Assembly: GCF_003991155.1 (NCBI RefSeq)
Contig: NZ_CP031295.1
DNA length: 64,000 bases
Direction: 5' to 3' (one strand)
Source: Escherichia coli
GTDB taxonomy: Bacteria > Pseudomonadota > Gammaproteobacteria > Enterobacterales > Enterobacteriaceae
Under the pieces are notes generated by a model. That model worked only from the letters and a program-made list of their open reading frames with translations. It searched no databases and was not told the origin of the DNA. Of this stretch, positions 12,321 through 28,143 are shown piece after piece (within the stretch, counting starts at the first letter, position 1; the number at the start of each line of letters is the position of its first letter). A program made the translations under genes and the position numbers.

Positions 12321-13140
12321 GGCACTGTTGCAAAGTTAGCGATGAGGCAGCCTTTTGTCTTATTCAAAGGCCTTACATTTCAAAAACTCTGCTTACCAGG
12401 CGCATTTCGCCCAGGGGATCACCATAATAAAATGCTGAGGCCTGGCCTTTTGCGTAGTGCACGCATCACCTCAATACCTTTGATGGTGGCGTAAGCCGTC
12501 TTCATGGATTTAAATCCCAGCGTGGCGCCGATTATCCGTTTCAGTTTGCCATGATCGCATTCAATCACGTTGTTCCGGTACTTAATCTGTCGGTGTTCAA
12601 CGTCAGACGGCACACGGCCTTCGCGTTTGAGCAGAGCAAGCGCGCGACCATAGGCGGGCGCTTTATCCGTGTTGATGAATCGCGGGATCTGCCACTTCTT
12701 CACGTTGTTGAGGATTTTACCCAGAAACCGGTATGCAGCTTTGCTGTTACGACGGGAGGAGAGATAAAATCGACAGTGCGGCCCCGGCTGTCGACGGCCC
12801 GGTACAGATACGCCCAGCGGCCATTGACCTTCACGTAGGTTTCATCCATGTGCCACGGGCAAAGATCGGAAGGGTTACGCCAGTACCAGCGCAGCCGTTT
12901 TTCCATTTCAGGCGCATAACGCTGAACCCAGCGGTAAATCGTGGAGTGATCGACATTCACTCCGCGTTCAGCCAGCATCTCCTGCAGCTCACGGTAACTG
13001 ATGCCGTATTTGCAGTACCAGCGTACGGCCCACAGAATGATGTCACGCTGAAAATGCCGGCCTTTGAATGGGTTCATGTGCAGCTCCATCAGCAAAAGGG
13101 GATGATAAGTTTATCACCACCGACTATTTGCAACAGTGCC
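12321..13140 (-). mobile_element. IS26 (copy 2; transposase frameshifted)
   Basis: 820 bp between IS26 IRs; homopolymer-length and base differences versus copy 1 break the tnp26 frame. Confidence 0.85.
12373..13077 (-). pseudogene. tnp26: IS26 tnp26 with frameshifts
   Basis: Split into ORFs 12700-13095 and 12419-12703. Confidence 0.8.
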
Positions 13141-13479
13141 CGCCCGCCTATGGTCGCGCGCTTGCTCTGCTCAAACGCGAAGGCCGGTGCCCGTCTGACG
13201 TTGAACACCGACAGATTAAGTACCGGAACAACGTGATTGAATGCGATCATGGCAAACTGAAACGGATAATCGGCGCCACGCTGGGATTTAAATCCATGAA
13301 GACGGCTTACGCCACCATCAAAGGTATTGAGGTGATGCGTGCACTACGCAAAGGCCAGGCCTCAGCATTTTATTATGGTGATCCCCTGGGCGAAATGCGC
13401 CTGGTAAGCAGAGTTTTTGAAATGTAAGGCCTTTGAATAAGACAAAAGGCTGCCTCATCGCTAACTTTGCAACAGTGCC
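13141..13479 (+). mobile_element. IS26, 3' partial copy (left arm of Tn4352-like unit, interrupted by IS26 copy 2)
   Basis: Begins inside tnp26 (CGCCCGCCTATGGTCGCGCG) directly abutting copy 2 IR; ends with IS26 IR at 13479. Confidence 0.8.
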
Positions 13480-13616
13480 AATTTATGAGTAAAGGATTAT
13501 GTCCACGATAAGCACCTGGGTCGATTCCTGGGAGGCGGCCATGAGGGTAGGGAAGCGCCGTCCCGTCAAGTCAGCGTAATGCTCTGCCAGTGTTACAACC
13601 AATTAACCAATTCTGA

Positions 13617-14432
13617 TTAGAAAAACTCATCGAGCATCAAATGAAACTGCAATTTATTCATATCAGGATTATCAATACCATATTTTTGAAAAAGCCGTTT
13701 CTGTAATGAAGGAGAAAACTCACCGAGGCAGTTCCATAGGATGGCAAGATCCTGGTATCGGTCTGCGATTCCGACTCGTCCAACATCAATACAACCTATT
13801 AATTTCCCCTCGTCAAAAATAAGGTTATCAAGTGAGAAATCACCATGAGTGACGACTGAATCCGGTGAGAATGGCAAAAGCTTATGCATTTCTTTCCAGA
13901 CTTGTTCAACAGGCCAGCCATTACGCTCGTCATCAAAATCACTCGCATCAACCAAACCGTTATTCATTCGTGATTGCGCCTGAGCGAGACGAAATACGCG
14001 ATCGCTGTTAAAAGGACAATTACAAACAGGAATCGAATGCAACCGGCGCAGGAACACTGCCAGCGCATCAACAATATTTTCACCTGAATCAGGATATTCT
14101 TCTAATACCTGGAATGCTGTTTTCCCGGGGATCGCAGTGGTGAGTAACCATGCATCATCAGGAGTACGGATAAAATGCTTGATGGTCGGAAGAGGCATAA
14201 ATTCCGTCAGCCAGTTTAGTCTGACCATCTCATCTGTAACATCATTGGCAACGCTACCTTTGCCATGTTTCAGAAACAACTCTGGCGCATCGGGCTTCCC
14301 ATACAATCGATAGATTGTCGCACCTGATTGCCCGACATTATCGCGAGCCCATTTATACCCATATAAATCAGCATCCATGTTGGAATTTAATCGCGGCCTC
14401 GAGCAAGACGTTTCCCGTTGAATATGGCTCAT
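13617..14432 (-). CDS. aph(3')-Ia: Aminoglycoside 3'-phosphotransferase APH(3')-Ia
   Basis: 271 aa MSHIQRETSCSRPRLNSNMDADLYGYKWARDNVGQSGATIYRLYGK... = Tn903 aphA1. Confidence 0.95.
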   Translation of the reverse strand: MSHIQRETSCSRPRLNSNMDADLYGYKWARDNVGQSGATIYRLYGKPDAPELFLKHGKGSVANDVTDEMVRLNWLTEFMPLPTIKHFIRTPDDAWLLTTAIPGKTAFQVLEEYPDSGENIVDALAVFLRRLHSIPVCNCPFNSDRVFRLAQAQSRMNNGLVDASDFDDERNGWPVEQVWKEMHKLLPFSPDSVVTHGDFSLDNLIFDEGKLIGCIDVGRVGIADRYQDLAILWNCLGEFSPSLQKRLFQKYGIDNPDMNKLQFHLMLDEFF

Positions 14433-14519
14433 AACACCCCTTGTATTACTGTTTATGTAAGCAGACAGTTTTATTGTTCATGATGATATATTTTTATCTT
14501 GTGCAATGTAACATCAGAG

Positions 14520-15339
14520 GGCACTGTTGCAAATAGTCGGTGGTGATAAACTTATCATCCCCTTTTGCTGATGGAGCTGCACATGAACCCATTCAAAGGC
14601 CGGCATTTTCAGCGTGACATCATTCTGTGGGCCGTACGCTGGTACTGCAAATACGGCATCAGTTACCGTGAGCTGCAGGAGATGCTGGCTGAACGCGGAG
14701 TGAATGTCGATCACTCCACGATTTACCGCTGGGTTCAGCGTTATGCGCCTGAAATGGAAAAACGGCTGCGCTGGTACTGGCGTAACCCTTCCGATCTTTG
14801 CCCGTGGCACATGGATGAAACCTACGTGAAGGTCAATGGCCGCTGGGCGTATCTGTACCGGGCCGTCGACAGCCGGGGCCGCACTGTCGATTTTTATATC
14901 TCCTCCCGTCGTAACAGCAAAGCTGCATACCGGTTTCTGGGTAAAATCCTCAACAACGTGAAGAAGTGGCAGATCCCGCGATTCATCAACACGGATAAAG
15001 CGCCCGCCTATGGTCGCGCGCTTGCTCTGCTCAAACGCGAAGGCCGGTGCCCGTCTGACGTTGAACACCGACAGATTAAGTACCGGAACAACGTGATTGA
15101 ATGCGATCATGGCAAACTGAAACGGATAATCGGCGCCACGCTGGGATTTAAATCCATGAAGACGGCTTACGCCACCATCAAAGGTATTGAGGTGATGCGT
15201 GCACTACGCAAAGGCCAGGCCTCAGCATTTTATTATGGTGATCCCCTGGGCGAAATGCGCCTGGTAAGCAGAGTTTTTGAAATGTAAGGCCTTTGAATAA
15301 GACAAAAGGCTGCCTCATCGCTAACTTTGCAACAGTGCC
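14520..15339 (+). mobile_element. IS26 (copy 3, 820 bp)
   Basis: IS26 IRs at both ends; intact tnp26. Confidence 0.95.
14583..15287 (+). CDS. tnp26: IS26 transposase Tnp26
   Basis: 234 aa; one substitution versus copy 1 (DFYISS vs DFYLSS). Confidence 0.95.
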
Positions 15340-15660
15340 ACGAACAGCACCTTCAGATAATGGTATCCAGTCAATTTGTGCCTTCATAATACCAGTCATC
15401 GCTCCATGTCGTTCCGGAGAGCACCACACCATTCCTTCAGACCAGCGAACCAGTTCACGCAACTCCATAACTTTTGGATGTGATTCCGGTGCATCATCAG
15501 GAAGTGGAAGGCCAGATGGATTAAAAATGCGGACGTCTGCGCCCATTGCAGTTAACAAACGGCCTGCTTCCTCTGTCGCCAGTCGACTGTATGAGCGCTC
15601 ACGAACTGAGCCATAAAGCATTAGAATACGAGGTGGGTGAGATATTGCCGGTATCCCCAT
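15340..15660 (-). pseudogene. arsH: arsH (NADPH-dependent FMN reductase), 3'-truncated by IS26
   Basis: N-terminal approx 107 aa [27 protein letters not shown]... ArsH-like; reading frame runs into IS26. Confidence 0.6.
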
Positions 15661-15820
15661 TTTTTGCTCAGTTATTGCAGTATCAGATAAATCAGGAACT
15701 ATATTATTTAACCTATTAATTTTTATGATTTTCTCTATATATTCTTGGCTTAATTAGGTGTGCTTCGCACGGGTAGATACAGCATTCGTCAATCATGACA
15801 GTTATGAGTTTTCCGGTTAC

Positions 15821-16248: not shown

Positions 16249-17328
16249 ATGAATAGTTGGATTCCTATGTTGCAAGATGCCGCAGAGATGTTTGTTTTTC
16301 TGGCTGTTGAGCTTTCATTGCTGTTTATTGTCATTAGTGCCGGTGTGAGCCTGATAAGGCAAAAAGTCCCGGATCATAAAATTCAGCAGATGATGGGGGC
16401 GAGAAAAGGTAAGGGGTATCTGTTGGCCTCGTTGCTGGGAGCCGTTACCCCTTTCTGTAGTTGCTCAACAATTCCAATGTTGCGAGGATTGTTGTCTGCG
16501 AAAGCGGGGTTTGGTCCGACACTCACTTTTTTGTTTGTTTCACCGTTGCTTAATCCCATTATCGTGGGACTAATGTGGGTTACCTTTGGCTGGAAAGTAA
16601 CTTTGCTGTATGCGATCATCGCTGCCGGTGTTTCAGTTCTTTCCAGTATTATACTGGATTATTTAGGGTTTGAACGTCATATTGTTGAATACAAAAATTC
16701 AGTATCAGGTAGTTGCGCCACCAAGTGCGGTGATTCTGAAGCTTCGGTAAAAACGAATTGCTGTACTTCATCAGCAAAAACCATAATTAACTTAAAGACA
16801 GTAAAGAAAGAGCAAAATATATCGGCGTGTTGTCCCTCAATTCTATCAGAAAAATCTTCTGAAAGTTGTTGCAGCAGCGAGAGTCAGGGCAACAGAAATC
16901 TCACAATGAATGCCACCTCTGGTCTAATAAAATTAGCAATGAAAGATGCCTTACAACAGTTTAAGGATGTTCTGCCTTATCTTTTGTTAGCTATATTAAT
17001 AGGTTCATTTATTTATGGTTTTATCCCTTCAGAGTGGATTGCAGCTCATGCCGGTGCAGATAATCCATTAGCCATACCGCTCAGTGCTGTTGTTGGTATT
17101 CCGCTGTATATTCGTGCTGAGGCCGTAATACCACTTGCATCAGTTCTGATGACTAAAGGTATGGGCCTCGGAGCTTTAATGGCCTTGATAATCGGTAGTG
17201 CTGGAGCGAGTCTGACAGAAGTAATATTGCTTAAATCAATGTTCAGAATGCCCATGATAATCGCATTTCTGACGGTTATCTTAGGTATGGCAATCCTTAT
17301 GGGATATTTAACGCAATTTTTGTTTTAA
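16249..17328 (+). CDS. arsP: ArsP-like organoarsenical efflux permease
   Basis: Multi-TM permease with the ArsP signature TPFCSCSTIP and a Cys-rich loop (CC, ACCP, SCCSS). Confidence 0.65.
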   Translation: MNSWIPMLQDAAEMFVFLAVELSLLFIVISAGVSLIRQKVPDHKIQQMMGARKGKGYLLASLLGAVTPFCSCSTIPMLRGLLSAKAGFGPTLTFLFVSPLLNPIIVGLMWVTFGWKVTLLYAIIAAGVSVLSSIILDYLGFERHIVEYKNSVSGSCATKCGDSEASVKTNCCTSSAKTIINLKTVKKEQNISACCPSILSEKSSESCCSSESQGNRNLTMNATSGLIKLAMKDALQQFKDVLPYLLLAILIGSFIYGFIPSEWIAAHAGADNPLAIPLSAVVGIPLYIRAEAVIPLASVLMTKGMGLGALMALIIGSAGASLTEVILLKSMFRMPMIIAFLTVILGMAILMGYLTQFLF

Positions 17329-17620
17329 TCCTTATGAGAAGGGATTTTTGCGTCAATATGAAAATCCCTTCAGTCTTACGGCGCGGTTCTAACGGTGTAG
17401 CCCTTTTATTGTTATCCCTAAACCACCTCCTAGGGAGGTGGTGATTGATCCTGTAAGGCTATAGCCTGAAGAATGCCCATGTCGGAATATCTCTGCTTAC
17501 TGACCACAAGTAAAAGCAACTGTTCTACCAGCAGCCTGCAAAAAACATATAAGCTGATCTGAAAGGAATACTTCACAATGAATATTATTGTGTTTGTAAC
17601 CTGCTGTTATCGCGATGAAA

Positions 17621-18238
17621 TTACCGTTCAGTTTTTTCGGTTGACGCGGACTGTTCCTGCATGGTTTTCATCTTTAGCTTCTGTTGTTCCCTTACTGCCA
17701 GCCAGCGTCTGGCATTCAGCGCATCGCATTCTGATACCTGACCTGCTGGTAGTCCATCCAGTCCATAACGAGGGATACCTGCGACAGCAGTACGCTGCAG
17801 ATATACCTGTCGGGTGGTGATGCAGGATATTGCACAGGACCATTCATCCAGTGTCAGTTCTGTCTCAGGGTGTTCTGTCAGGAATGCGGCAAAATCATTG
17901 GTTATGCCAATTTTCAGTGGAAGAAATCCTCCGCCTTCTGCGCGAAGATGGGGAAACAGAGACTTCACTTTTTCCACGCAATCGTGAGTAAATTCATGAG
18001 TCCAATGAGGCTGGCGTGGAAAACGGCGTCTTTTCTTTTTTTTCTTACAGGCAGGAGCATCAGGGGTATGAGTATCGACGGCAGGCGAACTGATCCCCTC
18101 AGAGACTGATTCTTCCATCTTTTCTGTCTCTGAACGTGCGATAACACCTGTTTTTTCAGATAAGGAAGGGGGTAAAAGAGTGCGACGTTTTTTCACCATA
18201 ATGATGGGTGTTTTCTTTTCTTCCTGATATTTCCCCAT
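17621..18238 (-). CDS. ProQ/FinO-domain RNA-binding protein
   Basis: Lys/Arg-rich tract (KKKKKRRR) followed by FLPLKIGITNDFAAFL...RYGLDG, resembling ProQ/FinO domain. Confidence 0.45.
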   Translation of the reverse strand: MGKYQEEKKTPIIMVKKRRTLLPPSLSEKTGVIARSETEKMEESVSEGISSPAVDTHTPDAPACKKKKKRRRFPRQPHWTHEFTHDCVEKVKSLFPHLRAEGGGFLPLKIGITNDFAAFLTEHPETELTLDEWSCAISCITTRQVYLQRTAVAGIPRYGLDGLPAGQVSECDALNARRWLAVREQQKLKMKTMQEQSASTEKTER

Positions 18239-18525
18239 AAAAACCTCTACGATGTGTTCTTATATAATAATATATATCATATTTTCACGATTAACATAAT
18301 ATCTTCGTTAAGAAAACAACAGAGCAAAATTTGTTTTTTTTTGACAGGCATGAAATGAGCCAGCATAATTATATTAATTATTATCCCAAATGAGTTTTTG
18401 TATTTGCTCATTCGGGATGGTTGGATATTTTAAGTTATATCTACTGTATCATTCTCAGGTAATCGTTCCATTAAATCAGAAACTACGGGCTGTAACCAGT
18501 CAGTGACTTCACTCACATACTGATG

Positions 18526-19992
18526 TCATTCGGGATGCCTGGAGGCCAGATCCATCACTCGTGTTAACCCGGACGGACGATCAATGCCCAATTTAGTTAA
18601 AATATTCGAGATATAATTATGAGCATCAAGTTCAACTCTGATATCCCTTGCTGCTTCGATTATTTCTAAATATTCGCCACCCAATCCGTCCAGTGGGACA
18701 TTTGTAATAAGATAATGAATGTATTGTTCAGGCTTAACCCCATTTGGGAGATTAAATTGTTTTACTTTTCCTTCCGCTGCCGCTTTTAACTCATAAGTTC
18801 GTGATTCTGTGCCGGTGAAAACTTTATCACGAGCAGTTTTCTTTTCATTTTCTGTGGAATATTTATCGCCATCAAGAATATAAAGTTTACCAGATAGATT
18901 GTCACCACGAATAAGGGTACTGGCAAGTAGAGTGAATGCGTTTGAAGCTGCGCCAAATTTAAATATTTTTACATATTTGCTGGCCTTAAGTGAAGAACAT
19001 ATTTTATTTATTATGGCAACAGCTAAGTCATCTTCTACATATATTTCAATAGGCGTCGTTGATTCACCTGTTAATCTGTTTATAGCATCAGGTTTTGTTT
19101 CTTCAAATGAATAACTACGGCCTTGAATGTTTACGACGTGTCTTATATTTATCTTGTCTGATAAAGTGGTTATCATTTCTCTATGGGTAGTAAAGATGAT
19201 TTGTTTGTTTTTATCTTTGGCATGAGATGATATGACTTCTATTAACTTTTTCAATGCTTCGTCATGCAACAATAAATCTAATTCATCAATTAATATTAAG
19301 GCGTTCTTGTCCGCTTTCAATATTGTTTCCAGAATTAAAAATATCTTTTGCTCTCCTGCGCTCATACTCAATGATGAGTAGGCCAGTCCCCCTGACTCAA
19401 CTCCAATCAATATTTTTCCATTGGGTTGTTGATGCTGATTGAAACTTGTGTATGGTTTATTAAGTATATAGGAGGCGTAATGAAGAATGTTTGTTATTAA
19501 ATCATTACTGACACTGCTGGTTTCATACTGAATATTATTCTTTTTTTCTGATTCTATTATAGGAACACATTTATCAATGCCAAGATAGTAAACTTCTCTT
19601 AAAGGACGACGAGCATAAATCTGAATCCATCGTGAGCCTCGAATATCTGCTTTTCCATAATTTTTCAATTCATTTTCAATCATTACCCCATCTTTACGAT
19701 AAGTTAAATTTACAATGAAGTCACTGCCGTTCCATTCAGCATGTGGGCTGCGTGGAAAAAAATGCATTAACCGATGGTCTTCACCGGGGAAACCTTCTTC
19801 AGGCATGTATATGCTTGCTATAGCATGGAGTATTGTTGATTTTCCGCTTCCATTTGGACCTAAAATTGCGGTTAACGCATGAGGTTTAAAAATAATCTCG
19901 TTTAATCCATTTATACATTTTAGTTTGTTAATTTTAATGGAGTTCAAGACTTGACCAGTAATGGTTTTTTTATTTTTTTCTGCCATTTTCAA
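18526..19992 (-). CDS. OLD-family ABC ATPase-TOPRIM nuclease (defence-associated), apparently solo
   Basis: Walker A GPNGSGKST, signature/Walker B LSMSAGEQK...ILIDELDLLLHDE, H-loop FTTH; C-terminal TOPRIM-like IEIYVEDD and YILDGDKY; AT-rich. Confidence 0.55.
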   Translation of the reverse strand: MKMAEKNKKTITGQVLNSIKINKLKCINGLNEIIFKPHALTAILGPNGSGKSTILHAIASIYMPEEGFPGEDHRLMHFFPRSPHAEWNGSDFIVNLTYRKDGVMIENELKNYGKADIRGSRWIQIYARRPLREVYYLGIDKCVPIIESEKKNNIQYETSSVSNDLITNILHYASYILNKPYTSFNQHQQPNGKILIGVESGGLAYSSLSMSAGEQKIFLILETILKADKNALILIDELDLLLHDEALKKLIEVISSHAKDKNKQIIFTTHREMITTLSDKINIRHVVNIQGRSYSFEETKPDAINRLTGESTTPIEIYVEDDLAVAIINKICSSLKASKYVKIFKFGAASNAFTLLASTLIRGDNLSGKLYILDGDKYSTENEKKTARDKVFTGTESRTYELKAAAEGKVKQFNLPNGVKPEQYIHYLITNVPLDGLGGEYLEIIEAARDIRVELDAHNYISNILTKLGIDRPSGLTRVMDLASRHPE

Positions 19993-20248
19993 ATCCTAGC
20001 ATTATGTTGGGGGGATTCACCATGTAATTCAGAAACATATAACTGTGAACAGGGGATATATCAAATCCTTTTAATATTCTATTTGGCACAGTATTCTACA
20101 TCAGGCCTCTTTTATGCTACAGACTTTTTGAGATGTCTGTAATTTTAGACTTAATGTTATGACTGATCATATCTCCTATCCACTGGTGGCGCAGGAAAGT
20201 TAACCAGCTGCCACCATGGGATGATGTGTAAACCGTGCTGGTATGTTT

Positions 20249-20839
20249 TTACGGGGTGACGCTTTCATTAACCTGTACACGAACCTCCATTCCGGCATCG
20301 TGACAGGCCTGCAGCCACTGCGCCACTTCCAGCGGATCGCCCTCCAGGCGTACCACCCTGCCTTCTTTATTCCATAACTGCAGACAGGTGCTGCCGTCGA
20401 GACGTACCACAAAATCCCCACGGCAGGCCTGATACGTTATGCCGTTCAGCTGCACCGCCAGATCAGTGGCAGAAGTGCCGTCTGCGGGCAGACCTGCTGC
20501 CGGGACCAGCGGCAGTACGACGACTTCTGCCGCACGCTGTTCTGCCCGGAGGCGGTCCTGTTCTGCCAGCAGCAGAGGCTGTGCCACGGCCCGGCCGGCG
20601 TCCGTCAGCTCGACAGCCAGCTGCAGATTCGGGGCGCGCAGGGTACGCAGCCAGCCGGCATCCTCCAGACGACGGCAGGAGGCGCGCAGGTTTGGCCCGT
20701 AGACCGGGGCTTCCCCGCTTCGCTCCAGCACCCGTTCCAGGTCCCGCGTCAGCACGGGGCCCGGCCGTTTTTCATCAAGCGCAGCCAGCACAATCAGCAC
20801 TCTCCGCTGCAGTGGCGACGGTCGGCGGCTCTGGGTCAT
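20249..20839 (-). CDS. hypothetical protein, GC-rich, possible winged-helix N-terminus
   Basis: 196-aa ORF, GC-rich codon usage distinct from neighbours; translationally coupled to upstream 85-aa ORF. Confidence 0.4.
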   Translation of the reverse strand: MTQSRRPSPLQRRVLIVLAALDEKRPGPVLTRDLERVLERSGEAPVYGPNLRASCRRLEDAGWLRTLRAPNLQLAVELTDAGRAVAQPLLLAEQDRLRAEQRAAEVVVLPLVPAAGLPADGTSATDLAVQLNGITYQACRGDFVVRLDGSTCLQLWNKEGRVVRLEGDPLEVAQWLQACHDAGMEVRVQVNESVTP

Positions 20840-21096
20840 TACCTGTCATCCTCCGGCCAGATGAGGTTTCTGAGGCGCTGAAAGTCGGCGTCAATGAGCT
20901 CCTGTCTCTTTATGGCATTCATTGAGGCATAGCCATTTATGGCCAGTTCATGCCAGAAGATCAGCACGGCTCCGGCTTTGGCTGACTCGCAGAGATAAAT
21001 CGCGCCCTGGCTGTCCAGATTGCATTCCCGGATGCGTTTTTCCGCAAACCGGGTCAGTTGTTCATAGCTGAGTGAAAACACCCTTTCTTCATCCAT
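20839..21096 (-). CDS. hypothetical small protein (85 aa)
   Basis: ORF whose stop overlaps start of 20249-20839 gene. Confidence 0.35.
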   Translation of the reverse strand: MDEERVFSLSYEQLTRFAEKRIRECNLDSQGAIYLCESAKAGAVLIFWHELAINGYASMNAIKRQELIDADFQRLRNLIWPEDDR

Positions 21097-21449
21097 CCTG
21101 CACGCTCCATCTGATAATGTACTGACAGGTAAAAATAATATCCTGCATGATTTGTGTGCTCATGATTTCTGATAATATCAGATATTGTTTTATCATCAAT
21201 GATGAAAACCATATCTGATATGATTTTATATATATTTCTTAATTATCATATCATTTGCGTCTTTTCTGCCGCGCAGATCCAGTTTCCGGCTAAGTCGGAT
21301 CGACCTAATCTTTGTTTCTGATATGAACACCTCGGAGAGGTGTAAGCAATGGTATAAACGAAATGTATTATGTATCTGCATCACAGCATGCGGGCACATT
21401 TTGCGGAAGGATATGAATCCCCCCGGAATAACTGGCAAAGGACAGATAA

Positions 21450-23588
21450 ATGGACATTGAAATACGCCACTGCAATAACATCGTACGAGCACATATCACC
21501 CTCACTGCCGATAAACTGAACATTAAGTTTGCGCCAAATGGTACTGGAAAAAGTACGCTGTCACGGGCCATAAGCTGTGCGGCGCGGGACGACATTCAGG
21601 GACTACAGGCACTGATGCCCTTCCGGCTGCGCGGAGAAAACCCCGATAGCACCGGGCCCATTGTCATCGGTGCTGACGGGATTGGGGACGTGATGTGCTT
21701 CAACGAGGAGTACGTCAGTCAGTTTACGTTCCAACCGGACGAGCTCATCAGTGATAGCTTTAATATTCTTATCCGCAATCAAGCCCATGCGGAAAGAGAG
21801 CGTGAAATAGAAGAAATGACGCAAAAGATCCGGGCTGTTTTCACGGATCACACTGAGCTGAACTCTCTGATAGACCATCTACAGGAACTCAGTAATGCTT
21901 TCAGATCAACCAGTTCCGGGATTTCACGTTCTTCAACCGGCATGAGAGGTCTGTCAGGCGGAAATAAAATACACCACATTCCGGCTGGTCTTGAGAACTA
22001 TCAACCCTACATCCGCAGTGAACGCCGCGTGGAATGGATTGACTGGCAGACAAAGGGACTCGAGTTTTCGCCCCTTTCGGATGGCTGCTGTCCGTTCTGT
22101 ACCGGTGATATCACGGGAAAGGAAGCACAAATTCGCCAAGTCAGAGAGGAATACGATAAATCCACCATTAAAAACCTGACCGCTATCATCAGACTGGTGG
22201 AAAACCTCGGTAATTACCTGACGGAGAGCGCCAGAGAACGCCTTCTGGCCATTACTATGCTTCAGAACGGTCCGGAAGCCGAACATATCGAGTACCTAGT
22301 GGCGTTGAAACGCCAGACCGATACGCTGACAGAGAAACTCACTGCGCTGAGAGGCCTGAATGTTTTCAGCCTGCAGGAACAGCAGAACGTTCGGGAGGTG
22401 CTCACTGCCAGGTTGATTGACCTGCAGTTCTTCCCTGATCTGCAATCCGAACTCATGCAGGGGATCACCGACAGACTGAACGCGGCCCTTATGGACCTGA
22501 TAAACCTTGCCGGACCGCTGCAGGGAAAAATTAACCGGCACCGGGACAGCATGATCCGGCTGATCGCACAGCACAAAACAAACATCAATAATTTCCTCAC
22601 TTATGCAGGCTATAAATACAGGGTGGATATAGCCGGCGAGGGAGAGCAGAGAAAACTCAGGCTACGACACATAGATTTTGACGGGTACGTCAGCGGCGGT
22701 AGCCAGCATCTCAGCTATGGAGAACGGAACGCCTTTGCGATTGTGTTATTCATGTATGAATGCCTGTCAAAAAACCCGGGACTGATTATCCTTGATGATC
22801 CCATATCTTCTTTTGATAAAAACAAGAAGTTTGCCATTCTTGAAATGCTGTTCAGACGTGCAAGTGGTGAATGCCTGAAGAACCGGACTGTACTTATGCT
22901 GACGCATGACGTGGAGCCTGTGATTGACACGCTGAAGTCAGTCAGAAGGTTGTTCAGTAATCAGGTGACCGCCTCCTGCCTGCGCCTGTCTGCTGGAGTC
23001 ATAGAAGAATTACCTGTTAACGACGGCGATATCATGACATTCATGCAGATCTGCAAATCCATCACCGCGTCAGCAGACTGTGAGGAGATCATTAAGCTCA
23101 TCTATCTTCGTCGCTACTTTGAAATCGTTGACGAACGTGGTGATGCTTATCAGCTTCTATCCAATCTATTCCATCGACGCGTCGTCCCGCTGGATTATCG
23201 CGAGCCTGCCGCTGCGGGCTCGGGCTATCCCAAAATGGCTCCTGAGAAAATTCAGCAGGCCTTGCGGGATATCCGGGAGTATGTGGACAGTTTTGATTAC
23301 CCGCGACTTCAGGCTCTCGTCAGCAGCCCAGATGAAATAAAAAACCTGTACCGTCGCTGTCGTAACGGCTATGAAAAACTGCAGGTATTCCGTTTACTGG
23401 AACTGGATCAGGACCATCCGGTAATACGAAAATTCGTTAACGAAACGTACCACATTGAAAATGAGTTCATCTGTCAACTAGATCCGTCCAGATTCGATCT
23501 CATCCCGGAGTACGTGATTATGGAATGTGACAAGCTCATCGCCCTGCCACCGGCAGCAAACCAGAGCTCGGTTGCCCGTATCGCTTGA
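21450..23588 (+). CDS. SMC/Rad50-like ABC ATPase with CxxC hook and C-terminal effector-like domain (RloC/PrrC-like candidate)
   Basis: Walker A APNGTGKST (aa~30); CCPFC (aa~223) in predicted coiled-coil insert; signature LSYGERNAF, Walker B LIILDDP, H-loop LMLTHD (aa~440-495); approx 210-aa C-terminal domain. Confidence 0.5.
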   Translation: MDIEIRHCNNIVRAHITLTADKLNIKFAPNGTGKSTLSRAISCAARDDIQGLQALMPFRLRGENPDSTGPIVIGADGIGDVMCFNEEYVSQFTFQPDELISDSFNILIRNQAHAEREREIEEMTQKIRAVFTDHTELNSLIDHLQELSNAFRSTSSGISRSSTGMRGLSGGNKIHHIPAGLENYQPYIRSERRVEWIDWQTKGLEFSPLSDGCCPFCTGDITGKEAQIRQVREEYDKSTIKNLTAIIRLVENLGNYLTESARERLLAITMLQNGPEAEHIEYLVALKRQTDTLTEKLTALRGLNVFSLQEQQNVREVLTARLIDLQFFPDLQSELMQGITDRLNAALMDLINLAGPLQGKINRHRDSMIRLIAQHKTNINNFLTYAGYKYRVDIAGEGEQRKLRLRHIDFDGYVSGGSQHLSYGERNAFAIVLFMYECLSKNPGLIILDDPISSFDKNKKFAILEMLFRRASGECLKNRTVLMLTHDVEPVIDTLKSVRRLFSNQVTASCLRLSAGVIEELPVNDGDIMTFMQICKSITASADCEEIIKLIYLRRYFEIVDERGDAYQLLSNLFHRRVVPLDYREPAAAGSGYPKMAPEKIQQALRDIREYVDSFDYPRLQALVSSPDEIKNLYRRCRNGYEKLQVFRLLELDQDHPVIRKFVNETYHIENEFICQLDPSRFDLIPEYVIMECDKLIALPPAANQSSVARIA

Positions 23589-23749: not shown

Positions 23750-24166
23750 TTACTTCACCCAGTCTTCCAGCACCAGGTCAGGCACTCGCTCAAATTCTCT
23801 TGTATTATTCGTTACCAGTATCGCCCCGGCGGCGATGGCGTGCCCGGCAATCGCCGTGTCGTTCGGGCCGATCGGCGTCCCGGCCAGCCGCAGTGCCACT
23901 TTAATCTTCGTGGTGGCGTCTACTGCGGCGCGATCCCAGGGCAGGATGGCATCGAGGCGGGCGCAGAATTCATCGACCAGTTGGACGTGACGTGGTGAGG
24001 CCTTTGGGCCGGTAGCCCCGAAGCGCATTTCAGAGTAGGTGATGGCCGAGACCACTATACGGTGGCCGCGTAGCACCGCCTGCTCCAGACGCTTCAGGAC
24101 GGCTTCTGGCTGTTCACGCATGATGAACGAGCAGATACAGGTATCAAGCATATAAGTCTTGTTCAC
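23750..24166 (-). CDS. vapC: VapC PIN-domain toxin
   Basis: 138 aa MLDTCICSFIMREQP...; PIN-domain acidic residues; overlaps vapB stop. Confidence 0.85.
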   Translation of the reverse strand: MNKTYMLDTCICSFIMREQPEAVLKRLEQAVLRGHRIVVSAITYSEMRFGATGPKASPRHVQLVDEFCARLDAILPWDRAAVDATTKIKVALRLAGTPIGPNDTAIAGHAIAAGAILVTNNTREFERVPDLVLEDWVK

Positions 24167-24393
24167 AGGTTAAATCGCCCTTCGTCGCTGACAACATCCT
24201 CGCGCTCCGCCATAAAATCTGGATCGGCTTTTTCGTACTCTAGGAATGATCCCCAGGTTGGCCGGACGGGGCGCAGGATGATGCTGTCCCCTTCCCGGAC
24301 GATCTCGAGCTCGCTCACCCCCTCAAAATCCAGATCACGAGGCAGACGGATGGCGCGGTTGTTGCCATTTTTGAATATCGATACGGTTCTCAT
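24163..24393 (-). CDS. vapB: VapB antitoxin (AbrB/SpoVT-type)
   Basis: 76 aa MRTVSIFKNGNNRAIRLPRDL...; 4-nt overlap with vapC. Confidence 0.85.
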   Translation of the reverse strand: MRTVSIFKNGNNRAIRLPRDLDFEGVSELEIVREGDSIILRPVRPTWGSFLEYEKADPDFMAEREDVVSDEGRFNL

Positions 24394-24688: not shown

Positions 24689-24979
24689 ATGAGCGTCAAA
24701 ATCACAGGTTTAGACAAAATGCAGAAACAGCTAAAAGAGGTTGAGAGAGCAACAGAGGCATTAAACGGAAGTTATGATGTCCACTTCGATGCTAACGATC
24801 CTGTCAGCATTGAGAACGCGATTCAGGAAGCCTATTCCATGGTGTACGAACGCGCTTCTGGTTATGCCACTAATCCGATGGTCAGCCCATTAATCGAACA
24901 CATGAAAGAAAATCTGCGCCAACAGATTCTGGACAGAGCAGAACAACAAAGACAGGAGAGCGGGCAGGATGGCAATTGA
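24689..24979 (+). CDS. hypothetical small protein (96 aa), first gene of TIR-like cassette
   Basis: ORF with RBS-like GGAGG upstream; 11-nt overlap with next gene. Confidence 0.45.
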   Translation: MSVKITGLDKMQKQLKEVERATEALNGSYDVHFDANDPVSIENAIQEAYSMVYERASGYATNPMVSPLIEHMKENLRQQILDRAEQQRQESGQDGN

Positions 24980-25868
24980 TATCTTTCAGTCACTTAAAAA
25001 TTGCGTATTCGACCTTCAGCGCGCTGACGTTCAGAACTATCAGCAACCTCTTAAGCAATTGGCCCGGCTCTTGAACTCAGAGAATCTGCAGTCAGTTAAT
25101 GCACATCTGACCCGCAATGTTGAACTTGATACCTTTCTGGCCAGGAGTGAAGATACTGAATCCAGCATGGCTGGTTCCGCTGTTCTACAGTGGCCTGATG
25201 AGCCCGCTGATATTTTGGGCCTGAAGTTGCTGCTGATCGAGAAAATGGCAGACGATAACAATTTTTCCTTTAATTTCTGTCATACATTTTTCTATGATCG
25301 AAACATTATTGAATCCATTCGAAAATTCACGTCGTCATTAGTTGCCCCGTTCGTGCGCGATTACCAGTTGTATGTGGAAAACCAACACGATCCTGAGCCT
25401 GCAGTGTTTCGGCCGGTTTCCCGAAAAATTTTTATTGTTCATGGCCATGATAATGATGCCCTTCAGTCTGTTGCCCGTTTTATATCCCGGATAGGTCTTG
25501 AGGAAATCATTCTTTCAGAACGTCCTGACGGCTCCAGGACGATTATCGAGAAATTTGAAGCAGAGTCAGGGGATGTCAGTTTTGCCATCGTGCTGATGAC
25601 GCCCGACGATAGCGGCAGTGCTCTGGCATCTGAAAGCACACGTCTCCGCGCACGCCAGAATGTCCTGTATGAGCTCGGATATTTCGCCGGGAAGCTTGGA
25701 CGCGGGAAAGTACTTGTACTCAGGAAGGGAGATATCGAAATCCCTTCAGATCTTGCCGGGGTTCTCTATACCGAGCTTGATGAGCATGGTGGATGGAAAC
25801 GCAAACTGCTGAGTGAGCTTGCGTATGCCGGTGTTCCTTTTGACAAGGATAAAGCATTAAGCGCCTGA
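24969..25868 (+). CDS. TIR-like-domain protein (PF10137-type C-terminus) with unknown N-terminal domain
   Basis: C-terminal motifs KIFIVHGHD, AIVLMTPDD, RARQNVLYELGYFAGKLGRGKV, EIPSDLAGV typical of predicted nucleotide-binding TIR-like proteins. Confidence 0.55.
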   Translation: MAIDIFQSLKNCVFDLQRADVQNYQQPLKQLARLLNSENLQSVNAHLTRNVELDTFLARSEDTESSMAGSAVLQWPDEPADILGLKLLLIEKMADDNNFSFNFCHTFFYDRNIIESIRKFTSSLVAPFVRDYQLYVENQHDPEPAVFRPVSRKIFIVHGHDNDALQSVARFISRIGLEEIILSERPDGSRTIIEKFEAESGDVSFAIVLMTPDDSGSALASESTRLRARQNVLYELGYFAGKLGRGKVLVLRKGDIEIPSDLAGVLYTELDEHGGWKRKLLSELAYAGVPFDKDKALSA

Positions 25869-25917: not shown

Positions 25918-28143
25918 TCAGTCGTCATTTTCCAGCGCTGTTTTGAGCGCTTCCTGCTCCGGAGTCAGCTCGTTGCCGGACAGCATAACCTTCAACTTCT
26001 CTTCGACTGCTGGCCAGTCATCAAAGAACGGACTGACCTGGTCACGCGCAATCCGGCGATATGCCCCTCGGTGGGAGCTGAAGACACTGGTCTGTAATCG
26101 TATCAACAGGTTAACAAGGCCTTCATCAGTGGTAGTAACTTCTCTGACCCATTGCTTCACGGTTTCACCTGAACTCATGTCTCTCCAGGCGTAGAGATAC
26201 CCGAGAAGAGACTTGCGCAGGAGAAGCTGTTGCTGAAGTTCTGGTTGATTCATACGTTCCGCAAACCTGTCACGCAACCGTTCCGTAATATCGCGACTGA
26301 AAAGAGCGTCTGAAGGCGAAGGTACTGCATTCTGAGCAAGTCCATGTTCCCAGATAAGATCCCGCATAAAATCGGCTATCCAGAACGGCGAAGCACCCGT
26401 AACGATCAGTTTTTCCATAAGCGTGATCGTTCTGGTCTCATCAATATCCTGCATATGCTTCAGCAGATGCCGTACAACCTCATTAATGGCCATTTCACGC
26501 AGGGAAAACCATGGGTTACGGATACTGAAGCGAGTGCTCACCTCATCGGTGTGATCGAAGAAAAAATGAACCAGTCCTGCGCACTCTTCGAAATTACGTT
26601 CTCTTATCAGGCCTGGAGTCAGTCTGCTCAGTATATGTTCAAACCAGGTTCCGGACAGACTGCCCACACTGTTGATTTTTGAGAGCAGCAATTCAGAAAG
26701 CTGCTGCTGTTTTTCCGATACGCCAGCCTGTTCAAAAAGCTGTCTGAAGAATTCAGGTGGCAGAACATTCTGTGGTGAGGAGAAGGCAAAATAATATCGC
26801 CAGTGCGTCAGGCTGCTGAGTCGTTTACCGGTCGTCTGGATATGACGAAAATCCTCACTGACGGGCTCAAAAAGATTCAGATATTCATCATTATGTCCAC
26901 TGATACCTGGGATCCAGTCTGCAAGTGTCAGAAACGAGTCTGCATTTGATGCCCTGAACGTCTTCATACATCTGATAAGCCCCTCCCGGAAGTCTGCTTT
27001 CTCTCCGTCAGAAAGCATACCCTGACCGGTTTCAATCACGGACCGTTCTGTCAGGTAATGCTCTGTCCAGTCATACAGAGCCGGGTTTGTCACCCGTATA
27101 AGCTGAAGCAGGCACAAATCAGGGAAATAAACAAAATCCCGCATCCCCGGATAAAGAAAAATCAGGGAATTAATGGCCTGATGGATTTCCCGTGGCGTCG
27201 AAAGTGCGGCACCATAGGTATCAGTCACCGCGATGAGATCCCTTACCATTCCAGAGTCTGGCGGTTGATTATTAATTTGCTGATATAGAGCCTCAGCCCG
27301 CTGGCGAAATTCATTACGTAAATCAAAGGCTTCAGGTCGGGGTAATTTAAAACTAAGCTGAATGATTTTCTGGAGATAACGGCTGCCATCTTCGATATTC
27401 AGCGCATGTTCAACGGCATGAGTGATAATCTGCCTGTCATAACAGAGAATATGGGTAAAGCGGGGCAGATCGGCTACTGCACGCACAAGCCTGAACACTT
27501 CCGCCACCTGGGATGGCTCCAGTCGGTCCAGATCATCCATGACAACAATGAACTTCAGATCCAGACTCACCAGTTGTCCTGCAATTTCAGCCCGAAGCTT
27601 TGTCGTGGTTTTCTGATCAACAGCCAGACGGCTGTCTGAAAATACCTTTATTCCGCCTGCTATCCAGTTAATAATGCTGGAAAACTGTCCGATATATTGA
27701 ACCAGTGGAAGGACGCGCGATGAAGTATCCTGAGCATACTCAATCACTTTTTGAGCTTCCGGTGACAACAGATATTTACGCCAGAGCTTTTTGAAGCCCT
27801 TCGGGGGATAGCGTATTTCCATTTCCTGCTGGATAACCGTGGCAACCGGAAGAAAGAGCGCTTCAACCGGACTGCCGCCACTCAGCCAGGGAGAAATATG
27901 CAGCACATGCGTGTGAGCATCTTTTTTCAGGGCAAGGTTTCTCAGGATCAGATTAAGGAGGCTTGTTTTACCCGATCCCCATGCACCTTCTATTCCGACA
28001 ACATTTGAAGCCTCCAGAGGAAGAGTAAGGATGGAACGGGATATATTTTCTGCGATATTACCGAAACCGTATCGATCCTCAGGTACATCTTCAACTGCCG
28101 CATCAAGCCCTTTCTGGTTCCACAGCTGCCTCAGTATCTTCAT
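25918..28143 (-). CDS. KAP family P-loop NTPase
   Basis: 741 aa; Walker A GAWGSGKTS, Walker B FIVVMDDLDRL; large size typical of KAP NTPases. Confidence 0.6.
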   Translation of the reverse strand: MKILRQLWNQKGLDAAVEDVPEDRYGFGNIAENISRSILTLPLEASNVVGIEGAWGSGKTSLLNLILRNLALKKDAHTHVLHISPWLSGGSPVEALFLPVATVIQQEMEIRYPPKGFKKLWRKYLLSPEAQKVIEYAQDTSSRVLPLVQYIGQFSSIINWIAGGIKVFSDSRLAVDQKTTTKLRAEIAGQLVSLDLKFIVVMDDLDRLEPSQVAEVFRLVRAVADLPRFTHILCYDRQIITHAVEHALNIEDGSRYLQKIIQLSFKLPRPEAFDLRNEFRQRAEALYQQINNQPPDSGMVRDLIAVTDTYGAALSTPREIHQAINSLIFLYPGMRDFVYFPDLCLLQLIRVTNPALYDWTEHYLTERSVIETGQGMLSDGEKADFREGLIRCMKTFRASNADSFLTLADWIPGISGHNDEYLNLFEPVSEDFRHIQTTGKRLSSLTHWRYYFAFSSPQNVLPPEFFRQLFEQAGVSEKQQQLSELLLSKINSVGSLSGTWFEHILSRLTPGLIRERNFEECAGLVHFFFDHTDEVSTRFSIRNPWFSLREMAINEVVRHLLKHMQDIDETRTITLMEKLIVTGASPFWIADFMRDLIWEHGLAQNAVPSPSDALFSRDITERLRDRFAERMNQPELQQQLLLRKSLLGYLYAWRDMSSGETVKQWVREVTTTDEGLVNLLIRLQTSVFSSHRGAYRRIARDQVSPFFDDWPAVEEKLKVMLSGNELTPEQEALKTALENDD

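Follow-up and report, generated by a model that had tools for sequence, protein, structure and literature searches.

The minus-strand open reading frame at 18526..19992 of the window, by which we mean the whole 64,000-nucleotide stretch of DNA analysed, is ibfA. This gene of enterobacterial conjugative plasmids has been described before and confers phage defence on its own. The best explanation, which we consider very probable, is that ibfA encodes a stand-alone abortive-infection protein of the HEC-04 family, with an ATPase and a TOPRIM domain, and that the copy in the window is likely a hypomorph or dead. The gene itself is already known, and what is new is that, in an IncFIB/IncFIC allele, a stop replaces an invariant tryptophan and a charged residue replaces an always-aliphatic one.

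Gene structure and identity with ibfA of R64

The sequence-only reading had proposed this frame from its motifs. The frame is real (488 amino acids counted from a TTG), every motif quoted then is present, and the matches to the PADLOC model HEC-04 (E 4.4e-42) and to PHROG 3940 (E 4.1e-47) place it far above chance. Translation almost certainly begins at the ATG at 19986, giving a product of 486 amino acids, because an AGGA Shine-Dalgarno sequence lies 7 nt upstream and RefSeq uses the same start in every matching record. In the identical plasmids in RefSeq the CDS spans 1461 nt (WP_202745975.1). Residues of IbfA are numbered from this ATG throughout. The features of the gene are as follows.

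18526..19986, minus strand: ibfA CDS as it stands in the window, TGA after 486 codons, from the list of open reading frames
19994..19997, minus strand: Shine-Dalgarno AGGA, 7 nt 5' of the ATG, read from the sequence
19102..19986, minus strand: ABC-type ATPase domain, residues 1 to ~295
19834..19860, minus strand: Walker A GPNGSGKST, residues 43-51 of the translation, aligning with GPNGSGKSS in the HEC-04 protein that was tested
18757..19053, minus strand: TOPRIM core, residues 312-410, beta-alpha-beta-alpha-beta-alpha ... beta
19030..19035, minus strand: codons of E318-D319, the acidic pair ending TOPRIM strand 1, invariant in 92/92 homologs
18865..18873, minus strand: codons of D372-G373-D374, the TOPRIM DxD metal-binding motif, invariant in 92/92 homologs
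18529..18756, minus strand: residues 411-486, what remains of the C-terminal helical domain, AF2 helices at 419-481 (pLDDT ~90)

The ATPase domain carries the Walker A lysine K49, the signature SAGEQ (209-213), Walker B D234-E235, the D-loop D237 and the H-loop H268; in the translation, ILIDELDLLLHDE corresponds to residues 231-243 and FTTH to residues 265-268. The TOPRIM motifs YVEDD and ILDGDKY occupy residues 316-320 and 370-376, and E420, E441 and H456 in the retained helical domain are invariant columns of the homolog alignment. All catalytic residues of the ATPase and TOPRIM domains are intact in the window copy.

The phage-interference gene ibfA was first annotated on the IncI1 plasmid R64, where AP005147 nt 32653-34209 received the name (Hiley et al. 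2021, PMC8004404). Comparison of R64 with the window showed 2 differences in 2901 nt, with the coding region 99.9% identical. A block consisting of arsR, a permease gene, a ProQ/FinO gene, ydeA, ydfA, a PDC-S06 ATPase gene, vapBC and pifA is common to both, and the two IbfA proteins have the same two-domain layout of ATPase and TOPRIM. R64 and pUA1135 are IncI1 replicons, whereas the window is IncFIB/IncFIC and carries aerobactin genes. The idea that the window is itself an IncI1 plasmid was dropped, since the rest of it matches IncFIB/IncFIC aerobactin plasmids.

Deletion and complementation of the pUA1135 ibfA allele, which is 97.5% identical, showed that infection by P22-like phage is aborted (Lopez-Perez et al. 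2025, PMC12111858). Interference with phage UAB_Phi20 requires ibfA, and ibfA alone restored much of it; complementation was incomplete, with an EOP of 0.05 (PMC12111858). In qPCR, phage DNA replication was normal, early transcripts over-accumulated and late transcripts were missing (PMC12111858). Those authors argue against ATP depletion by IbfA, propose as an alternative an indirect route through interference with Arc/Ant regulation, and report that PADLOC calls the pUA1135 protein HEC-04 (PMC12111858). The interference phenotype of the R64 type (BF23/T5, P22-like) was thus shown for the pUA1135 allele.

With such direct genetic evidence for phage interference, it is very improbable that this ABC protein has a role outside defence, for example in DNA maintenance (SMC/RecF-like) or as the ATPase of a transporter. 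The RefSeq name 'AAA family ATPase' would fit such a role, as would the NCBIfam matches, which are only weak, generic ABC hits, all far under their cut-offs, and the pUA1135 authors speculate on other host-beneficial functions (PMC12111858). Against it, the ATPase is fused to a TOPRIM domain, a permease partner is absent, and the genes nearby are those of PifA, PDC-S06, PDC-S35/TIR-like and VapBC proteins.

Premature stop and L386R in the window copy

The sequence-only reading overlooked that the frame ends at 18526 in a TGA that is premature relative to the 518-amino-acid R64 protein. Three features describe the altered part of the gene.

18526..18528, minus strand: premature stop TGA for TGG (Trp487), T at 18526 against C in R64, context GAA TGA CAT
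18829..18831, minus strand: codon 386, Arg here against Leu in R64, difference at 18830
18430..18525, minus strand: former ibfA 3' end, codons 488-518 plus TAA, now past the stop, encoding the conserved terminal helix

Because TGG has become TGA at codon 487, the product has 486 amino acids and not the 518 of R64 IbfA, and it carries L386R in addition. W487 is invariant in 92/92 homologs, which span 46-97% identity. The in-frame translation of 18430..18525, HQYVSEVTDWLQPVVSDLMERLPENDTVDIT followed by the original stop, is the same as in R64. This terminal region is conserved: W497 is kept in 89% and E507 in 97%, at least 20 residues follow W487 in 91/92 homologs, and pLDDT reaches 92-98 over the modelled helix 487-507. 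Residue 386 lies in a TOPRIM helix and is aliphatic throughout the 92 homologs (L in 51, I in 38, V in 3), so that L386R adds a charge. Both differences from R64 are non-synonymous and at conserved positions, and there is no synonymous difference. These alignments and models suggest that the window allele is probably a weakened (hypomorphic) or dead gene that spreads clonally with its plasmid lineage. Other plasmids also disrupt ibfA, by IS insertions and split CDSs, and shorter protein clusters of 297-399 amino acids exist.

Could the truncated allele be a fully functional, active ibfA variant, whose defence needs neither L386 nor the final 32 residues? The catalytic residues of both domains are kept, RefSeq treats the allele as a normal CDS and ~40 PLSDB plasmids retain it. 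The allele is also widespread, being found in 40 of 700 PLSDB records (~6% of ibfA-bearing plasmids) and in 42 of 392 E. coli records, and the exact 486-amino-acid protein occurs on 461 public contigs. However, all six TGA-allele carriers examined were of one plasmid type, IncFIB/IncFIC, and since this may reflect clonal hitch-hiking, the spread of the allele is uninformative on function. The invariance of W487, the conserved and confidently modelled helix behind it, the charge introduced at position 386 and the lack of any synonymous change all argue against full function, which we regard as unlikely.

A second possibility, which we consider improbable, is that the stop at codon 487 acts as a leaky attenuator and not as a simple knock-out. 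The stop is UGA followed by C, and Poole and colleagues (1995) reportedly found that in E. coli no other context terminates as weakly. Read-through of UGA in this species relies on Trp-tRNA(Trp) and amounts to ~2-4% in K-12 reporters (PMC10570021). Because the TGA replaces a Trp codon and Trp-tRNA(Trp) reads UGA, read-through would restore the wild-type residue. If this reading is true, a few percent of the IbfA made would run to full length, L386R being retained. In the IncFIB/IncFIC lineage this could dampen a toxic abortive-infection nuclease, with levels varying from cell to cell.

Whatever its activity, ibfA is not rare, occurring in 372 of 5426 complete E. coli genomes (~7%) and in ~1% of PLSDB plasmids, and the IncFIB/IncFIC lineage with the TGA allele is globally distributed. 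RefSeq annotates the truncated allele as an intact CDS named 'AAA family ATPase' and NCBIfam is without a model, yet the gene is a validated phage-interference gene, which gives the identification value for annotation. The frequency of ibfA matters when Salmonella and E. coli are phage-typed or treated with phages. Its presence should not be taken for active defence, because HMM-based HEC-04 finders would score the truncated allele as intact; the window copy is an ordinary one that may be partly or wholly disabled.

Neighbourhood and stand-alone action

The low GC content pointed out from the sequence was confirmed, with 0.353 in the CDS against 0.504 in the window. The low-GC block extends over ~18200-20200, between one flank of 0.47-0.51 and another of 0.56-0.69. 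Repeats that might mark insertion scars were looked for around the block, and only short, chance-level matches came up. The plasmid pERB9c3, which bears ydeA without ibfA, was used as an 'empty site' comparison; its record is fragmented. The ProQ/FinO-like neighbour named earlier was likewise found, and the genes next to ibfA are these.

17621..18238, minus strand: ProQ/FinO-family gene downstream of ibfA, Pfam ProQ E 4.6e-12, context and not a partner
20249..21096, minus strand: ydeA (196 amino acids) and ydfA (85 amino acids) upstream of ibfA, GC 0.56-0.69

The gene had been described as lacking an obvious partner, and indeed helicase, DUF4435 and reverse-transcriptase genes are absent within 5 kb. 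Four distant homologs were checked for conserved neighbours, and all had different ones; the neighbours in Klebsiella, Aeromonas, Vibrio and Synechocystis are unrelated. The lack of a conserved partner gene suggests that IbfA acts alone.

We also considered that ibfA might belong to a multi-gene system with ydfA, ydeA and the ProQ/FinO-like gene, in which, for example, a regulator or antitoxin restrains the nuclease. The four genes are co-oriented, and RT-PCR showed that they are co-transcribed in pUA1135 (PMC12111858). Our promoter/terminator scan turned up sites at consensus level only, and none of them was a terminator separating ibfA from the ProQ-like gene, which is compatible with the published co-transcription but does not discriminate. 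A weak winged-helix/AbiEi-like match of ydeA (E 0.07) and the incomplete complementation by ibfA would also fit a multi-gene system; neither ydeA nor ydfA matched a significant Pfam or PADLOC family. However, cloning of the whole pUA1135 operon achieved no more than cloning of ibfA by itself, and deletion of ibfA was equal to deletion of the operon (PMC12111858). HEC-04 also functions as a single gene (Payne et al. 2024 preprint). In addition, 4115 plasmid records contain ydeA/ydfA whereas 726 contain ibfA, the GC content breaks sharply from 0.35 to 0.56-0.69, and the distant homologs do without these neighbours. A multi-gene system is thus quite improbable, and ydeA and ydfA are GC-rich backbone genes, not dedicated partners of ibfA.

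Family assignment, proposed mechanism and known systems

The sequence-only reading had assigned the protein to the OLD family of ATPase-TOPRIM proteins. This stands for architecture and fold, as in IbfA an N-terminal ABC ATPase domain is followed by a TOPRIM fold whose metal site is acidic; its sequence places the protein in the HEC-04/IbfA family and not with canonical OLD, GajA or AriA/B. The best PADLOC model was HEC-04 (PDLC04149, E 4.4e-42), which aligned IbfA residues 3-393 with profile positions 14-386 of 494, and the next model (3.6e-21) was ~20 orders of magnitude weaker. No TOPRIM, DUF4435 or OLD model of Pfam matched the whole protein or 28 C-terminal domains, so that the TOPRIM question lies beyond sequence profiles; a C-terminal alignment profile also gave 0 matches against PDB sequences, even at E 10. 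The fold itself is present in the model, for which the top Foldseek match was the OLD protein of Thermus scotoductus (Ts OLD, 6p74). When the C-terminal domain alone was submitted to PADLOC, HEC-04 was the sole match (E 1.4e-5), indicating that the retron I-B and AriA matches of the whole protein stem from its ATPase part. A tblastn search of 50,697 phage genomes found no ibfA match, although the PHROG profile phrog_3940 matches.

Similarity of fold to OLD and AriB, together with PADLOC matches to ATPase-Toprim_I-B (3.6e-21), AriA (1.4e-19), GajA (9.5e-12) and Old (9.1e-11), might suggest an orphan of a classical system: a P2-type OLD, a GajA that has lost GajB, a PARIS AriA-AriB fusion or a retron type I-B effector. 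These secondary matches cover mainly the signature/Walker B stretch and lie 20-30 orders of magnitude below HEC-04, and they vanish from the C-terminal domain. Helicase, reverse-transcriptase and DUF4435 genes are absent nearby, no Rfam family matched 17000-21600 at E up to 1 (Rfam coverage of retron RNAs being uncertain), and the stand-alone arrangement is the norm in the family. We therefore hold an orphan origin to be very improbable.

For the stand-alone HEC-04-family protein that we favour, the following mechanism is proposed. IbfA would begin with an ABC ATPase (SMC/Rad50/PtuA-like), continue with a putative metal-dependent nuclease domain of the TOPRIM type and end in a helical region. 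The ATP-bound ATPase head would serve as infection sensor and switch and, once triggered, would license the TOPRIM site (E318, D319, D372, D374) for nucleic acid cleavage. Cleavage would keep the phage from expressing its late genes and from producing virions, while the host cell would halt growth without lysis, that is, undergo abortive infection. An RNA target whose cleavage stops translation, as with PARIS AriB, appears somewhat more likely than bulk DNA degradation, because the published qPCR found normal DNA replication, excess early transcripts and missing late ones.

Among known systems, class 1 OLD (P2 Old) differs in that the PADLOC Old model (E 9.1e-11) covers only IbfA residues 227-308 and not both domains. 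For Gabija, the GajA model (E 9.5e-12) covers only residues 229-289, and the GajB/UvrD helicase is absent next door. PARIS uses two proteins, AriA and AriB, whereas IbfA is one polypeptide; beyond the AriA model (E 1.4e-19), the AriAB fusion model matches the IbfA ATPase only, and Pfam scans recognised no AriB-type DUF4435 protein or domain in IbfA. The second-best PADLOC model, with E 3.6e-21 over residues 210-403, is that of the ATPase-TOPRIM effector of type I-B retrons; it loses its match when the C-terminal domain of IbfA is used alone.

HEC-04 of E. coli MOD1-EC5853 (WP_044502283.1) is, like IbfA, a single-gene ABC ATPase-TOPRIM defence, and the tested protein aligns colinearly with IbfA at 24% identity (E 7e-26). 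The reported phage ranges differ: HEC-04 defends against T4 and T5 and fails against T7 and lambda, whereas IbfA of R64/pUA1135 interferes with BF23 and P22-like phages. The helical C-terminal region of IbfA lies outside the HEC-04 model, the match of which stops at residue 393. In HEC-04, the Walker A mutant K62A and the TOPRIM mutants at E319 and D375/D377 lose defence (Payne et al. 2024 preprint). These residues align with K49, E318 and D372/D374 of IbfA, and because all four are invariant in the 92 IbfA homologs, we infer that the chemistry of HEC-04 extends to IbfA.

The ibfA gene and its published phenotype

The sequence-only reading had placed an OLD-family ATPase-TOPRIM gene at 18526..19992 (-), and both this open reading frame and all of the motifs quoted for it were found. 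The TTG at 19992 is simply the most upstream codon that could serve as a start. The ATG at 19986, two codons further on, has an AGGA upstream at suitable spacing and is the start used in every RefSeq record carrying matching DNA; we therefore place the gene at 18526..19986 (486 codons plus TGA). Its translation contains the following motifs, numbered from this ATG.

Motifs in the translation of ibfA (18526..19986, minus strand)
Residues 43-51, Walker A, GPNGSGKST
Residues 209-213, ABC signature, SAGEQ
Residues 231-243, Walker B/D-loop, ILIDELDLLLHDE
Residues 265-268, H-loop, FTTH
Residues 316-320, YVEDD
Residues 370-376, ILDGDKY

The observation is confirmed, and chance is no plausible source of it (HMM E-values between 1e-42 and 1e-47). 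The low GC content also holds, at 35.3% for the coding sequence against 50.4% for the window; the low-GC block spans about 18200-20200, flanked by the ProQ/FinO-like gene (47-51%) and the ydeA gene (56-69%).

Hundreds of conjugative plasmids from enterobacteria match a 2.9-kb block around the gene. On Salmonella plasmid R64 this block is 99.9% identical and the coding sequence occupies nt 32653-34209, exactly the coordinates of ibfA ('inhibition of bacteriophage BF23') given by Hiley et al. (PMC8004404). Lopez-Perez et al. (2025) studied a 97.5% identical allele from the IncI1 plasmid pUA1135 and described IbfA as a 518-aa ATPase and TOPRIM protein, called HEC-04 by PADLOC (PMC12111858). They showed that ibfA is needed for abortive-type interference, in which burst size is reduced and viability is lost without lysis, and that interference came back to a large extent with ibfA alone on a low-copy vector (EOP 0.05); the entire ydfA-ydeA-ibfA-proQ operon had a like effect (PMC12111858). 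The interpretation made from sequence is supported overall, and the gene is the known, named and experimentally studied ibfA. The sole new element is a double-hit allele in an IncF lineage.

A premature stop and L386R in the window allele

Two bases separate the window from R64 across 2901 nt; both changes fall within ibfA and are non-synonymous. A T at 18526, where R64 has C, changes TGG (Trp487) to TGA and removes the final 32 residues of the 518-aa protein; past the TGA the former reading frame is still intact as far as its own TAA (18430-18432). W487 is invariant across an alignment of 92 full-length IbfA homologs (46-97% identity), of which 91 continue for 20 residues or more after it. 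The helix that follows is conserved (Y/F490 92%, V/I494 97%, W497 89%, L/M498 96%, E507 97%) and is modelled at pLDDT 92-98. The second difference, at 18830, is a C where R64 has A; it introduces L386R into a TOPRIM helix, and all 92 homologs carry L, I or V at this position. This conservation suggests that the window allele is probably weakened or inactive.

The exact 486-aa protein occurs on 461 public contigs, and an identical 71-mer surrounding the stop is present in 40 of 700 PLSDB plasmid records and in 42 of the 392 records drawn from complete E. coli genomes; the allele is therefore real and no sequencing error. In other plasmids ibfA is broken by IS2/IS3, IS903 or ISKpn26 insertions or as split coding sequences, and shorter IbfA protein clusters exist. 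Such disruption fits a costly gene, and HEC-04 is toxic on induction (bioRxiv 10.1101/2024.01.29.577857).

The premature stop reads UGA, with C as the next base. Natural read-through of UGA by Trp-tRNA is 2-4% in K-12 reporters (PMC10570021), and at this Trp codon it would restore the native residue 487; a role for the stop as a leaky attenuator is possible, though improbable in our view. The 12-mer CATCCCGAATGA occurs at 18526-18537 (-), at the premature stop, and 118 nt away at 18408-18419, just past the natural stop, the stop-making G-to-A change extending the repeat from 11 to 12 nt. The repeat is probably a coincidence; a templated mutation is conceivable.

Neighbouring genes and host plasmid

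As proposed from sequence, the downstream gene encodes a genuine ProQ/FinO protein and no helicase gene lies near ibfA; a reverse transcriptase gene is likewise absent, and Rfam gave no family match in the region around ibfA. The genes ydeA and ydfA, very unlike ibfA in base composition, occur in 4115 plasmid records and ibfA in 726; ydeA itself matched no significant family. The search for conserved neighbours, suggested at the outset, found different neighbourhoods in all four cases examined.

Neighbours of IbfA homologs
Klebsiella michiganensis: DUF7380 protein, resolvase
Aeromonas veronii: acetyltransferases, thiH
Vibrio splendidus: GGDEF gene, HNH protein
Synechocystis: DUF433 protein, unrelated genes

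The published complementation by ibfA alone and the test of HEC-04 as a single gene point the same way, and with these findings they support ibfA as a stand-alone system in which a partner is not needed. In Vibrio splendidus (L006/L007, 7613-8875) the 420-aa HNH nuclease gene lies 110 nt downstream of the homolog on the same strand and adjoins prophage or integrase genes; the two may form a local two-gene version of the system, or the HNH gene may just be another defence gene that lies nearby.

All six inspected carriers of the window allele (Korea, China, USA, Hong Kong, Japan) are IncFIB/IncFIC MOBF conjugative plasmids. Positions 28200-53000 match E. coli aerobactin plasmids (iucA-C) of the IncFIB/IncFIC type, pPBS4 for example, at 99.9% identity, which rules out an IncI1 plasmid and indicates an IncF ColV-like virulence/resistance plasmid with an R64-type variable defence block. 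With ibfA, the following genes make up a 10-kb defence island.

Further genes of the defence island
21450-23588, plus strand, PDC-S06 candidate, 712-aa ABC-type ATPase, PADLOC match almost end to end (E 4.8e-286)
23750-24393, vapBC
24689-25868, plus strand, PDC-S35 candidate, 299-aa 'nucleotide-binding protein' (PADLOC E 2e-65)
25918-28143, minus strand, PifA, T7-exclusion protein, 741-aa KAP-type P-loop NTPase (PADLOC E 2.9e-290)

PDC-S06, a PADLOC single-gene defence candidate named 'AAA family ATPase' in RefSeq, is transcribed divergently from ydfA. In its C-terminal half the PDC-S35 protein is similar to CBASS/Pycsar TIR effectors (E 1e-9 to 1e-13), and a 96-aa ORF (24689-24979) overlaps the start of its gene. 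R64 carries a pifA annotation, and pifC comes next after pifA in matching plasmids. At about 12400-15700, aph(3')-Ia (13617-14432) lies between IS26 copies, one end of which interrupts arsH at about 15180-15660; only arsR and a permease remain of the R64 arsenic cluster.

Predicted fold, family and proposed mechanism

Pfam recognized only ABC/AAA families in IbfA, within the N-terminal 280 residues. Neither Pfam applied to the C-terminal domain of IbfA and 27 homologs nor a profile of this domain against PDB sequences gave a match; the TOPRIM domain is revealed by structure prediction, not by sequence profiles. When the full-length AlphaFold2 model (pLDDT 84, 92-sequence alignment) was compared with the PDB by Foldseek, the top hit was a full-length class 1 OLD nuclease, that from Thermus scotoductus (6p74, E 1.7e-13), with both domains aligned. 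Residues 296-518 modelled separately (pLDDT 87.7, pTM 0.83) form a beta-alpha-beta-alpha-beta-alpha...beta core followed by helices.

Scores of structures compared with the IbfA C-terminal model
2p62, PH0156: 9.1
6nk8, Burkholderia class 2 OLD C-terminal region: 8.0
6p74, Ts OLD: 7.5
8v46_D, PARIS AriB: 7.0
8gcc_B, topoisomerase II: 5.5
8u7i_A, GajA: 5.4
9i2f_C, retron Ec67 protein: 5.0

Generic flavodoxin-like folds reach about 5-5.7 in the same comparison. PH0156 is the structure that HHpred paired with DUF4435/AriB proteins (PMC11381338). On these structural comparisons the TOPRIM fold is therefore present as predicted, and the modelled IbfA is an ABC head joined to a divergent OLD/DUF4435-type TOPRIM.

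The top PADLOC model was HEC-04 (E 4.4e-42, residues 3-393), and by sequence IbfA is assigned to the HEC-04/IbfA family. Payne et al. confirmed HEC-04 experimentally as a single gene that defends against several coliphages, T4 and T5 among them; its K62A and E319A/D375A/D377A mutants lost defence (bioRxiv 10.1101/2024.01.29.577857). Aligned with the first 399 residues of the tested HEC-04 (their Table S2), IbfA is 24% identical (E 7e-26) with both domains colinear, and K62, E319, D375 and D377 correspond to IbfA K49, E318, D372 and D374. These ATP-site and TOPRIM metal-site residues, essential in HEC-04, are invariant in all 92 homologs, as are signature E212, Walker B E235, D237 and H268. Longer homologs of 603-684 aa (among P0047-P0052, P0060 and P0093) are domain-fusion variants; P0060 (653 aa) has nucleotidyltransferase-family Pfam matches (PF18765, PF01909) besides ATPase families.

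ATP binding and head engagement would gate the TOPRIM nuclease after a phage cue. In ibfA+ cells phage DNA replication is normal, early transcripts are up and late transcripts are down (PMC12111858). Such a pattern would be expected if phage regulators, namely repressors and the late antiterminator, were no longer translated, and it leans toward RNA or tRNA. By analogy with PARIS AriB, we tentatively favour such a target, at somewhat under even odds, over DNA; nicking or degradation of DNA, as by OLD/GajA, seems a less probable though serious candidate. Lopez-Perez et al. proposed indirect interference with Arc/Ant regulation (PMC12111858).

The OLD/GajA/PARIS architecture first suggested for the gene stands as an ATPase-TOPRIM fold and fails as a sequence-level assignment. 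The retron I-B ATPase-TOPRIM, AriA, GajA and Old models fell 20-30 orders of magnitude below HEC-04 in PADLOC, with matches mostly limited to the signature/Walker B stretch, so that by sequence IbfA belongs to none of OLD, Gabija, PARIS or retron I-B. It has the same organisation as class 1 OLD, and is predicted to work like an OLD-class nuclease.
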